This document shows, piece by piece, positions 22,918-40,993 of a DNA stretch of 64,000 bases. Every line of letters begins with the position of its first letter. Position 1 is the first letter of the stretch. Both the position numbers and the translations under genes were made by a program. The DNA lies in assembly GCF_022045235.1 (NCBI RefSeq), contig NW_027266286.1, forward strand, positions 14,446,001-14,510,000, in the 5' to 3' direction. A model generated the notes under the pieces. The model saw nothing but the letters and a program-made list of their open reading frames with translations. It had not been told where the DNA came from and did no database searches. This DNA is from Haliotis cracherodii. Taxonomy: Eukaryota.

Positions 22918-23307
22918 AATAGGAAAGAAGGCTACGAGACATTTTGAGAAGAATCTTTATAGCTTAATGAATAACTTCGTAACTCGCAAAACAATTGGGA
23001 ATCTCAGGAAAGTGTGTTGATGTTAAATTAGTTAGACCTCTCCATGAAGAGAAGCTAAGGAAACTAACGGCCAGTCCAGCCTATTCAGAAGTAAGATATT
23101 CGATAACGTCTTAGCAGCAATACATGTTTAAAAAAGAGAGAGCAAAATAGCATCTAACAAAACGGTATAGTTGGAATGAGCATCCATTTAATGACTTTTA
23201 TTAAAATGGTACTGACAGATTCTTTGTTAATGGAAATACAAACCGATGATGCCATAAAGACCTAGAAAAAACAGACGTATGCGATGTGAGTGATTACCTC
23301 AAAGATA

Positions 23308-23512
23308 CACCCGTGAAGATCCGGGGTAGAATAGGTATTCAGCAACCCATGCTTGTCCTAAAAGGCAACTATGCTTGTCGTAAAAGGCGACTAACGGGAT
23401 CGGGTGGTCAGGCTCGCTGACTTGGTTGATGCATGTCATCGATCCCAATTGCGTGGATCGATGCTCATGATATCAATCACTGGATTGTCTGGCCCAGACT
23501 CGATTATTTACA
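23308..23512 (+). mobile_element. SINE family B, 5' half of a split copy
   Basis: Preceded by ACCTCAAAGATA (23296-23307); breaks off at GATTATTTACA; the 3' half with the same TSD is at 39243-39315. Confidence 0.88.
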
Positions 23513-24346
23513 TGGCCTTCATCAACCGCCTCATCCATTCCATGTATCGACGTTGCACGGCAGTAATCAATGCACATGGCGAACACACCTGATACACACC
23601 TGATATCAATTTAAAACATCTTTGATTAATTGGCCTATTGATCAATGATTACAAACACCTATTCATGTTCATTAACAACTTCAGATACCTCACCCGTCAC
23701 GTTGGTTAGTTTAACCTCCCGTGCTATGCATTACTTTATACTGTATTAAGACACACTGTCACTGTAACTGACCTATATTTAAGGAGGTACTTTTTAATAT
23801 AATGATGATATTCGTTATAACCAAGCTTCTTATTCCTGATTTTGAAGGTACTACATGCAAAGTACAATTTGTTCTATCTTCTAGGTTACACGTGTGCTCT
23901 TAATGACATCGATAGGTAGGGATGCTACCTAAAAAAATGGCGCCGTGTTGATGCTCTGGATCAAAGTTATCTTGTTAACTTGTCTTAAAATTGTATATGT
24001 TATCATCTTGCACATGGACCTCACGTACAATAGCGATTGATTGACTCAATGACAAACAGATTTGCCATATAATCAACATCATAAATAATGCACTCCCTCA
24101 GGCGTGTGTACCAGGGGAGTGCTACTTATTGTAGATTTTGACATCGCGCTCGTGGCAAGTCCAGAGAATCATCCGTGGTGTTAAATATAACGTCGATGGG
24201 TCAATGCATGACTGCCTCGTGCACATGCGTTCCGATATAATGAACACAGTAAATAATGCCCACCGGTAATTATTTGGTATCTCCGCATAAGGCCACGCCT
24301 GTAATGTGTATTTGTAAGATATGTTGTGTGTTTCTTTATGCGTAAA

Positions 24347-24701
24347 NNNNNNNNNNNNNNNNNNNNNNNNNNNNNNNNNNNNNNNNNNNNNNNNNNNNNN
24401 NNNNNNNNNNNNNNNNNNNNNNNNNNNNNNNNNNNNNNNNNNNNNNNNNNNNNNNNNNNNNNNNNNNNNNNNNNNNNNNNNNNNNNNNNNNNNNNNNNNN
24501 NNNNNNNNNNNNNNNNNNNNNNNNNNNNNNNNNNNNNNNNNNNNNNNNNNNNNNNNNNNNNNNNNNNNNNNNNNNNNNNNNNNNNNNNNNNNNNNNNNNN
24601 NNNNNNNNNNNNNNNNNNNNNNNNNNNNNNNNNNNNNNNNNNNNNNNNNNNNNNNNNNNNNNNNNNNNNNNNNNNNNNNNNNNNNNNNNNNNNNNNNNNN
24701 N
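24347..24701. other. Assembly gap (355 N)
   Basis: Run of N at the position homologous to the first gap. Confidence 1.
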
Positions 24702-38125: not shown

Positions 38126-38165
38126 CAGTATTAGAGTATTGTAAACCTATCCTACATATAAAATA

Positions 38166-39242
38166 TACTGAACCGCAAAAGAAACGGTAATGGTAATGGG
38201 TAATTTTTAACACAGTTTTTTTAAATGTAACATTACCTTTTCCGGAAAAATGAAATTTGATGGTAAAAAGACTAAACAGATGACAATAAAACCGATTACC
38301 CAAACGCATCACGGAATGGTAACCCGATGCACGTGCGTTCCGTGCAAATTAAAATGCACATGCCTTCCCCCATTTCTTGCCCTATAAAAATCCACCCAGA
38401 TCGGATACTATTCTTTCGTTATTCACTTGCTACCCCAGGTCAAGATTGAGAATATATCAGCGACACCACACCCTTGTACGATTGCAAGCTGGACAAACCG
38501 CCCGGCAAGTAGCCAATGCATTTCAAGTCCACGTCAGGACCATATACTCCAGCAAAGGTACCAGACCACCAACACTAGAGATGACCGACCACGTAGTTGA
38601 AGACCAAGGGTCACCACCCGTCGTCAGATTGTGCGACAGCATCTTCAACATCGCTTCCTTACTGTTGCGGAAACTGCTCGACAGACCATGGGGAAACATC
38701 AGCGACACATTAGTGCGGACACATTGCGTCGACGATTGACGATCAGACACGTCCACTGTCAAAGGCCACCCTGAGGACCCATTCTGGGTCTACCTAGTTA
38801 TCGCCGGTACCGTCTTCAGTGGGCAACACAGCACCAGCATCTGGCAACACCATGGGGAACGTTATTCGGTTGTTTGCGTTTTTGAGAGAGACTCGTGGGG
38901 CGGTCCGAGCATCATGGTGTGGGGTGGAATTGGTCTTGCACAGAGGGTCGGCCCTGTGGTCTTCCAGACCATCGGTCCAGGGAGAGGTAATGGTGCAGCT
39001 CGGTACATTGATCAAGTCTTGAGACCACACACCATACCTCATTTGGCACGTCGCAGCAACCACGAGATCAGCATGATAACGTTCGTGCCCACACTGCAAA
39101 AGCAACAAGAGACCACCTCCAGCAGAATGGCATCAGAACCATGTAGTGACCTGCCCTCAGTCCATATTTAAATCCAATTGAGCACCTTAGGGACGAGATT
39201 CGAAGACAGCTGAAGGACGTCCGACAAAGGCCGACAACTACA
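38166..39242 (+). mobile_element. Degraded Tc1 element, 5' TIR plus most of the transposase, C-terminus missing
   Basis: TIR-like TACTGAACCGCAAAAGAAACG; PRSRLRIYQRHHTLVRLQAGQTARQVANAFQVHVRTIY, MVWGGIG, ARYIDQVLRP, HDNVRAH, LNPIEHL. Confidence 0.85.
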
Positions 39243-39303
39243 ACCGCCGTCATATAGCTGGAATATTGCTGAGTACGGCGTTAAACAACAACAAACAAAC
39301 CAA
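39243..39303 (+). mobile_element. SINE family B, 3' half of the split copy
   Basis: ACCGCCGTCATATAGCTGGAATATTGCTGAG...AAACAAAC followed by TSD ACCTCAAAGATA at 39304-39315. Confidence 0.88.
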
Positions 39304-40993
39304 ACCTCAAAGATAATTCACTGTACTACGGAATGAATAAGAATGTTTTACGCATGATGAAGGATTATTCTATTGGAATGCCTACTTCAGAGAAGGTGGG
39401 GATTAAGACGGAAGATGTACCGAAGTTGGGGGTTAAGACCAGATCAGAACAACCAAAGGAGTTCAGAAATATGTCGTAAAATAGTAACTATAACACAAGC
39501 AGTATAAAGATACGTTATTACATATCATAGGACATTCAAACATTAGATGAATATGTTAAGAAGTGAATAACATTAGACATATGGATTAAACAACCACGAA
39601 CAAACCGTCTGGCTAATCCATATTGAAGATTATATAAGATATGTTCTTCTTTCTTAACGAATCGACTGATTTTGTTTATCGCATGATATACCAAAGGAGA
39701 GGCAAGGGCCACCAAGCTGTGGCTGCCCATGCCTGTATTAAAAACACAAGATGAGATGGGATTTAACGGCCGAGGGTGTGCAGGTACTATAGAGCAACTA
39801 AGCTGCTACTTGGGAATACAAATAAGCTACCATTGCTATGGCAACCAGCGTGACCAACGGCGATTAGCAGCTACCGCTGCCGAGCCCCCCGCGGTCAAAG
39901 ACATTCTAGACAAATTCGAAGCATTTACTATTGGTGAAGTTAATGAGACATATGAGAGATACGTCTTCAATCTCAGAAAAAACAGAAGGAAGGAGAGACA
40001 TTTGAAAATTTCTTAGGATCAATCCGTTCTCTTGTGAAAACCTGCAACTATTGTCAGAATTGTATCTCTTCAATAATAAGAGATAGACTCATCCTTGGAG
40101 TAAGAGATCAGCAAGCACTACTCAAAGAGAGGGACCTCACTCTAGAAAGATGTATCGACATCTGTAAAGCCACTGAAAATGCCTCAGTTCAGTCAAAGTT
40201 GATCAGACCTGAACCTATCAATAGAGTTGCAATAGACTCTTTGAGATCAAGGCAAAAGAAGCCTCTTCGTTCAAGTCAAAAGATGAATTCTCCATCGAGA
40301 AGTCAGAGACCCCAATCTCAGCATGAAAGAGACTGTAAATTCTGTGGTTATTCTCATATCATGGCTCGTAAAAGTTGTCCTGCATGGGGAAAAAAGTGCA
40401 CGAAGTGTCACCAGCTGAATCATTTTGCACCAAAGTGTCCCAGTAAGAAGCAATACAGCAAAGTCAACAATGTTGAGCTTTCAGATGAAAATTGGATAAA
40501 TTCTGTGTATGAAGATTCAAACACGGACAAGCCTGCTAAATGTAGAATGACCGTGGAGGGAAGAGATGTCGTCTTCACTATTGATCCTGGTGCTGCTGTT
40601 AATATCATGCCGTCTTCTATTGTCCAGGACAAGTTGAAGAGTCTGAAACCTACAACTAAAAAGTTGAAGATGTGGAATGAGACTGACGTCACTCCTCTTG
40701 GTTGCCTAAGCATTCTTGTTCAGAATTCTGCTAACAAGAAAAAGTATTCTGTTGAATTTGTTGCTGTGAAAGAGAACTTTGCACCTCTCCTAGGTGTCAA
40801 AACTGTTACACTGATGAACTTAGTCACAATTCATGAGAAGAATATGAAGCGTGTTGCCAATATTGAAGTTACTGAAAAGTTCAGTGATGTGCTGAATGGT
40901 AAGCTTGGTACTTTTAGTGTTGTTGTTCATCTGTCAGTTGATAGTGCGGTGAGACCAGTTGTGATGCCAAACCGTCGTGTTCCTGTTGCACTG

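Follow-up and report, generated by a model that had tools for sequence, protein, structure and literature searches.

How did a single short interspersed nuclear element (SINE) come to lie in two halves around an insert of 7,973 nt whose outer ends are parts of a Tc1 transposon in swapped order? The arrangement spans 23296–39315 of a repeat-rich 64-kb stretch of Haliotis cracherodii DNA (contig NW_027266286.1), hereafter the window, in which all coordinates are given. The initial annotation had proposed that a chromosomal segment circularized, reopened inside the Tc1 and integrated into the SINE. The split SINE, the same-family Tc1 halves and the adjacent breakpoints of this account stand, and the closed circle is the less secure part: re-integration of a closed circular intermediate into the SINE is a reading that we consider evenly balanced.

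The split SINE and the Tc1 pieces of its insert

Sixteen of 19 public runs (three organisms) contain a fraction of 0.33–0.47 of the sampled insert words, every run consisting of contigs. Contigs from four of the 19 were placed on 22400–40400, with result tables dominated by SINE copies; contig depth does not equal copy number, and depth figures are taken as weak hints. Individual runs are denoted X1, X5 and X13, the last from a second organism. Two absences, that of the window letter in X1 at position 31339 and that of X5 cover at 37418, were not used, as contigs lose rare variants. Two references served for the Tc1: P0001, a full transposase of 345 residues recovered using the right Tc1 piece as query, and L001, a related Tc1 element from a metagenome locus, used for spacing and terminal repeats. 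The closest named relatives of the window Tc1 (P0002 and P0030) carry the label Haliotis cracherodii. The parts of the arrangement are as follows, A and B being the copies of a later tandem duplication.

23296..23307, + strand: left target-site duplication (TSD) of the SINE, ACCTCAAAGATA, from a repeat match; a family copy elsewhere in the window has a 10-nt TSD
23308..23512, + strand: SINE 5' part, from the head to ..ATTTACA, in duplication copy A; from copy alignment, with contig starts accumulating at 23309
23513..23595, + strand: Tc1 C-terminal piece in copy A, cut off where the later tandem duplication joins; agrees with P0001 318–345 at 26 of 28 residues
31143..31269, + strand: duplicate of the SINE 5' part, head and left TSD deleted; shares a private C with copy A
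31270..31393, + strand: insert start, a Tc1 C-terminus (318–345) and about 40 nt of 3' untranslated region, without the right terminal repeat; probable end point from P0002
31394..38165, no strand: insert interior, a mosaic of repeat fragments and low-copy DNA in which no gene was found; from profile and repeat evidence and low-depth contig pieces
38166..39242, + strand: insert end, a Tc1 left terminal repeat after TA and decayed transposase residues 3–301; from P0001 and L001
39243..39303, + strand: SINE 3' part with a CAAA-type tail; in agreement with the local majority at all 35 scored columns
39304..39315, + strand: right TSD; X1 record 7 spans from 39297 through the TSD into the right flank

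The two SINE parts had been described as one element, its halves consecutive in the family and bracketed by a common 12-bp TSD, and both statements are borne out. The 5' part stops at ..ATTTACA and the 3' part opens with ACCGCC, and all six other aligned copies in the window are continuous across the breakpoint (..TTTACAGACC(G/A)CC), with a single G between the halves; the two breakpoints are hence 1 nt apart and 1 nt of SINE is lost. Public contigs agree, since in all four runs the loose-end consensus beyond 23512 opens with GACCGCCGTCAT, and contig SINE ends accumulate at 23309 and 39291. The 12-mer ACCTCAAAGATA occurs exactly twice in the 64 kb (23296 and 39304), its copies directly flanking the SINE head at 23308 and the end of the SINE tail at 39303 as a perfect 12-nt TSD around both halves; a 12-nt match at the SINE ends (20 × 20 positions) is expected by chance at about 4e-5. 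TSD tests on other copies of the family gave one TSD of 10 nt (present twice through the duplication) and five copies with matches of at most 7 nt. On the strength of the six window copies, the public contigs and the shared TSD, the acceptor flanks appear to have been contiguous before the event, no intact allele of the locus being seen. The split copy differs from the majority of four other window copies in 5 of 185 columns of its 5' part and none of the 35 scored in its 3' part, and is young. In length the window SINE is similar to the Haliotis LP-SINE (Hmi_LP, 255 nt, in the available part of PMC4758252), an assignment that serves as a lead only.

The insert was said to begin with a Tc1 C-terminus and end with the upstream part of a Tc1, with some 15 codons missing between them, a description that the protein comparisons support; they also place both pieces in one family at compatible divergence. 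The left piece (31269–31352, with an identical copy at 23512–23595) corresponds to P0001 residues 318–345 (26/28 matching), and the right piece (38443–39239) to residues 3–301 (222 of 263 aligned residues matching), with frameshifts, stops and a 28-codon deletion. P0001 came top among 31 proteins for the left, middle and end test pieces alike (26/28, 56/59 and 46/57), and the two halves are of one family, where different families would have spoken against the initial account; Fisher's test on their divergence (2/28 v. 41/263) gave p=0.40, not significant and of low power with 28 residues. The breakpoints in the Tc1 are 45–48 nt apart, the spacing between matching points in L001 being 48 nt, such that 16 codons are missing, or 15 if the final ACA is a mutated GCA codon. 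At family level, then, the outer ends of the insert look adjacent in the donor (P0001 residues 301 and 318), and both halves may well derive from one Tc1 copy.

Of the HTH and DDE transposase domains of Tc1/mariner elements, the Tc1 halves show PF13358 above the cut-off and PF01498 below it (E 7e-6). A left terminal repeat follows TA at 38166 and matches the ends of L001, which has a near-identical terminal repeat on both ends. A frameshifted tail of P0002 matches the window until about 31393 and then diverges, and on this one frameshifted protein a length of about 125 nt is probable for the left Tc1 piece, which would end near 31393; an internal junction probably lies at that end, with 31393/31394 as best candidate. 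By contig depth ratio the P0001 family has roughly 1,600–6,000 copies. A DNA search for the family returned three metagenome loci, L001 alone being close (72%) and its own gene end broken, and found none in the viral or prokaryote collections. L001 itself (5895–7404 of its locus) keeps both terminal repeats, and its gene breaks off about 17 codons short of the end; its terminal repeat matches that of the window at 24 of 24 nt, at a protein identity of 72%.

Microhomology at the junctions amounts to 1 nt on the left and up to 4 nt on the right (1–4 nt). The initial annotation had pointed to TACA at both junctions; the motif is present, but relatives do without it, reading ACT GCA G where the window has ACT ACA and the SINE T ACA G, and because of this the right-junction TACA appears to be SINE-derived or a mutated codon. 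With one end at a given place in a Tc1, the other would land by chance no more than 50 nt away, in a copy of that family and on that strand, with a probability of 2e-5 to 1e-4; the figure is rough, as it takes the copy number from contig depth and assumes a genome size of 1.2–1.8 Gb. At such odds the two junctions (SINE 5' to Tc1 3' and Tc1 5' to SINE 3') are reciprocal products of one history, and we take the split SINE with its permuted Tc1 to be a real arrangement, well beyond chance.

Routes to the insert

In the proposed circular route, an 8-kb piece of ordinary chromosome with an old Tc1 copy would have looped out as a circle, which then would have broken inside the Tc1 with loss of 45–48 nt. 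End-joining repair would have inserted the opened circle at a break in the young SINE, leaving the SINE halves around the permuted insert; afterwards 17241–23595 would have been duplicated in tandem, copy B gaining a second Tc1 and losing 194 nt. In the available passages of PMC7450558, PMC7188851 and PMC3245284, a circular intermediate is recognized by the layout A1, C..D, A..B, A2, B and C being neighbours in the donor. We infer that the circle-closing junction would lie within 31394–38165, again with 31393/31394 as best candidate. On this reading the event is a one-off repair accident, with no function of its own, and not a mobile element.

The following features lie in the interior of the insert.

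32545–32727: a SINE
32687–33382: a LINE (long interspersed nuclear element) endonuclease piece
34995–36679: a LINE 3' piece with RNase H, between 11-nt TSDs
37717–38125: a hairpin repeat

No genes were found in the interior (31394–38165). A low-depth contig of X1 matches 33718–34022 with one difference, and X13 has low-depth matches at 31852–32110, 33351–33755 and 36944–37260. As such matches occur in X1 as well as in another organism, the interior is chromosomal DNA and not a mobile unit. Contig depth inside the insert (25.6 in X1; at 33850 in X5 it is 16, from two contigs of roughly 8 each) does not exceed that of the flanks, which hints weakly that the segment was moved and not copied. The hairpin at 37717–38125 has perfect 75-nt inverted arms around about seven tandem 42-nt units taken from the arm, and lies 40 nt before the Tc1 terminal repeat. 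The LINE 3' piece sits inside another repeat (34984–36690), of which X5 has the empty form (joint from 34994 to 36702).

Ordinary transposition is excluded, since both ends of the insert fall within the transposase gene and not at terminal repeats, and a fresh 10–12-nt TSD is absent around it. Tc1-driven (composite) transposition was rejected on the position of these ends and on the single family terminal repeat in the window. The SINE and LINE insertions of the window carry TSDs of 10–12 nt, and LINE-driven retro-insertion was rejected as the insert has no new TSD of at least about 10 nt (at most TACA is repeated) and no 3' tail. Tyrosine-recombinase-style integration at TACA fails on the 45–48 nt of donor lost and on relatives lacking TACA at the break. 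Helitrons end in TC..CTRR, and the ends of the insert do not.

Several observations weigh against a closed circle. The donor locus was not found in the 64-kb window, and a search through protein traces for an intact donor Tc1 copy with the private changes gave no candidates, itself a weak negative. No closing junction is proven in the insert; if the circle closed at 31393, no more than about 170 nt would separate the point of closure from the point of opening, a proximity that a random break in an 8-kb circle gives only a few times in 100. The right terminal repeat expected of the left Tc1 piece is not in the window, where the repeat occurs once only, at 38166, and a search of the insert for a remnant scored 26 against a shuffle mean of 28.5. 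The left piece is also less diverged than the right, though not significantly, and the Tc1 loss of 45–48 nt exceeds the 1–27 bp given in the available part of PMC7450558. Among the matches listed no contig bridges 23512, 31269 or 39242, and none joins 39239 back to 31270, results which, swamped as they are by SINE copies, are not evidence of absence.

A single repair event without a closed circle is possible and, in our view, modestly the less probable account. In one version the SINE break would have taken up two pieces in swapped order, a linear fragment of 7.85 kb with its end in the Tc1 and a shard of 125 nt from just beyond that end; in the other, an MMBIR/FoSTeS-like (microhomology-mediated break-induced replication/fork stalling and template switching) scheme of our own, both broken SINE ends would have invaded the same Tc1, copied outward in opposite directions and then joined. 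A short left Tc1 piece without terminal repeat and the junction at 31393 fit here at least as naturally, there is microhomology at both junctions (relatives T-GCAG where the SINE has T-ACAG), and the adjacent duplication junction carries a templated 8-nt insertion. Iterative template switching is documented for complex insertions (available passages of PMC5120786), and non-homologous end joining and MMBIR are inseparable by breakpoint sequence according to those of PMC7450558. The shard length comes from one frameshifted protein, however, and a later deletion or insertion at 31393 would explain it too; under the copying version the donor should persist and additional copies be present, although depth in the insert is not above the flanks (the same weak hint), and the literature search found no published two-ended copying model yielding circular permutation. 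The circle is modestly ahead of both versions, the lead being modest because the left Tc1 piece lacks its terminal repeat and seems to extend over about 125 nt, with an internal junction probably at its end.

Two overlapping inversions, the first joining the SINE to an opposite-strand Tc1 and the second restoring the reciprocal junction to the same strand, would also yield both reciprocal junctions, in balanced form and in agreement with the depth hint, and common events would suffice; we nevertheless hold this route improbable, as it requires two events and an extra junction to the right of the SINE and is the less parsimonious per the available part of PMC7450558. Equally improbable to us is a release, as circle or linear piece, by recombination between two direct-orientation Tc1 copies bounding the segment. 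The high copy number of the family and the somewhat lower divergence of the left piece speak for it, and it would account for both ends lying at nearly the same Tc1 position, but an extra loss of the right terminal repeat is needed and the difference in divergence is not significant. An assembly artefact, or independent insertions that only appear reciprocal, is the least probable of all and in our judgement very unlikely. The N gaps at corresponding positions of the two duplication copies, a divergence of 1–2% that could be allelic and the lack of a contig over two key junctions among the matches listed would suit an artefact; set against these, no gap occurs from 24702 to the window end, overlaps of 1–4 nt are not those of repeat mis-joins, two reciprocal junctions with a TSD are not chance, and the duplication junction, including the Tc1 C-terminal piece, is present in an X5 contig (X5 being possibly the source of the assembly and thus not independent).

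Later rearrangements and neighbouring features

The rearrangements that followed the insertion comprise the features below.

17241..23595, + strand: tandem-duplication copy A, 6,355 nt, with an N gap at 17980–18314; 0.95–2.1% divergence from copy B
23596..23603, + strand: duplication junction, an 8-nt insertion repeating adjacent sequence (templated)
23604..31352, + strand: tandem-duplication copy B, with an N gap at 24347–24701, a later Tc1 insertion and a 194-nt deletion
29599..31118, − strand: full-length Tc1 from another family, confined to copy B and with its TA duplicated; from terminal repeats and an empty TA site in copy A; 45% identical to P0001

The duplication, the second Tc1 and the deletion had been placed after the insertion, and this order is upheld: as the duplicated unit ends inside the Tc1 C-terminal piece, the duplication postdates the insert, and the second Tc1, with its TA site empty in copy A, and the deletion are later still. 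The 194 nt missing from copy B correspond to 23192–23385 of copy A, with AA microhomology, and include the SINE head and left TSD; because of this loss the TSD is present twice and not three times.

Contigs bear on the state of the duplication in the public runs. X5 record 17 (23566–24346) crosses the duplication junction with 30 nt on the left, one below the 31-nt rule, and some X5 pieces are identical to copy B, while others lie nearer to copy A. For three X1 pieces the count of differences from copy B is about that between the two copies (10 v. 12, 5 v. 5 and 11 v. 12), a fourth falls where copies A and B have no substitutions, and one departs from the window at 23604. From the difference counts and this departure X1 looks single-copy for the duplicated unit, and there is probably a real, polymorphic tandem duplication, although the assembly may itself derive from X5. 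Both copies contain a hairpin, with 71-nt arms in copy A (20997–21146) and 19 nt lost at the centre in copy B (27385–27515), and a weak integrase-core fragment (PF00665; 20054–20563 and 26439–26948, + strand), which we take to be Maverick/Ginger-like.

Elsewhere in the window, an older, patchy direct duplication (2842–9688 v. 13410–17117, 75–88% identity) ends about 120 nt before the start of the young one at 17241. To the right lies a Gypsy long terminal repeat (LTR) retrotransposon (39895–44207), its gag-pol interrupted by stops and by a tRNA-SINE near 40994–41153, with a 3' LTR candidate near 44094 of which 1–39960 holds no second copy. X1 and X5 contigs cross 39895, and an X13 contig departs from the window there. 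The 5' truncation of the Gypsy element at about 39895 was tried as a second inversion junction and rejected, the LTR scoring at shuffle level in the insert and leftward of it on either strand. Long open reading frames at 49227–52292 (+ strand) match the Patched and sterol-sensing domains (PF02460, PF12349) and would form a patched-domain gene, the sole host gene seen in the window. There are also a 64-nt tandem array of 18 copies (3002–4149) and a long (AGT/AGC)n array (57957–58431), and Rfam gave two weak tRNA-like matches outside the split-SINE region.

Known systems and what the locus may mean

A circular-intermediate mechanism has already been described in cattle, tilapia, human and yeast, and the comparisons that follow rest on the available passages of each source. 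Heritable re-integration of DNA circles is documented there in few animals, namely cattle, tilapia and human (PMC7450558, PMC3245284, PMC7188851), and in the published cases breakpoints fall in repeats unrelated to each other, with short microhomologies and small indels (PMC7450558). The KIT translocations of colour-sided cattle (Durkin et al. 2012, as described in PMC7450558, PMC12722694 and PMC3245284) share with the present locus a permuted insert, short microhomology and breakpoints in non-homologous interspersed repeats; they measure 492 and 575 kb, include a gene with a phenotype and have donor and closing junction mapped, whereas the insert here is 8 kb with no gene found. The human circle-mediated segmental duplications (cSDPs; PMC7450558, PMC7188851) likewise have the flipped order, microhomology and short indels at the opening and acceptor sites. 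They range from 22 kb to 3.9 Mb and were recognized by comparison with the donor copy, with losses of 1–27 bp; here the reading comes from repeat-family consensus alone, the loss is 45–48 nt and the segment was possibly moved and not copied. In the Nile tilapia vasa duplication (PMC3245284) a germline segment from a circle of about 28 kb was also placed at a new site with its block order flipped, but it carries a gene and its donor was sequenced. The complex insertions ascribed to FoSTeS/MMBIR (PMC5120786) resemble the locus in their microhomologies and templated pieces at junctions, adjacent donor breakpoints at the outer junctions not being described in the passages of that source. As to the Tc1/mariner family of P0001, from which both insert ends derive, its copy here is broken in the gene and permuted, and is a passive marker rather than the mover. 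The arrangement works like the known circle-mediated translocations and is a possible member of that class.

How often the re-integration of circles reshapes genomes is an open question in the available part of bioRxiv 2022.06.22.497135. A literature search, with subscription papers outside its coverage, found no mollusc case. Somewhat short of even odds, in our estimation, is that the locus records a germline circle-mediated chromosomal move in a mollusc, possibly balanced (excised and not copied), which can be read without donor or outgroup through two reciprocally split high-copy repeats. The locus alone matters little, having no gene found and no known effect. Its interest lies in a possible mollusc case and in split repeats as a reference-free signature, and it may be of use both as a polymorphic marker and as the template for a reference-free screen. 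If the reading is true, scanning repeat-rich genomes for pairs of repeats split reciprocally in this way would give a genome-wide tally of circle re-integrations in non-model animals.

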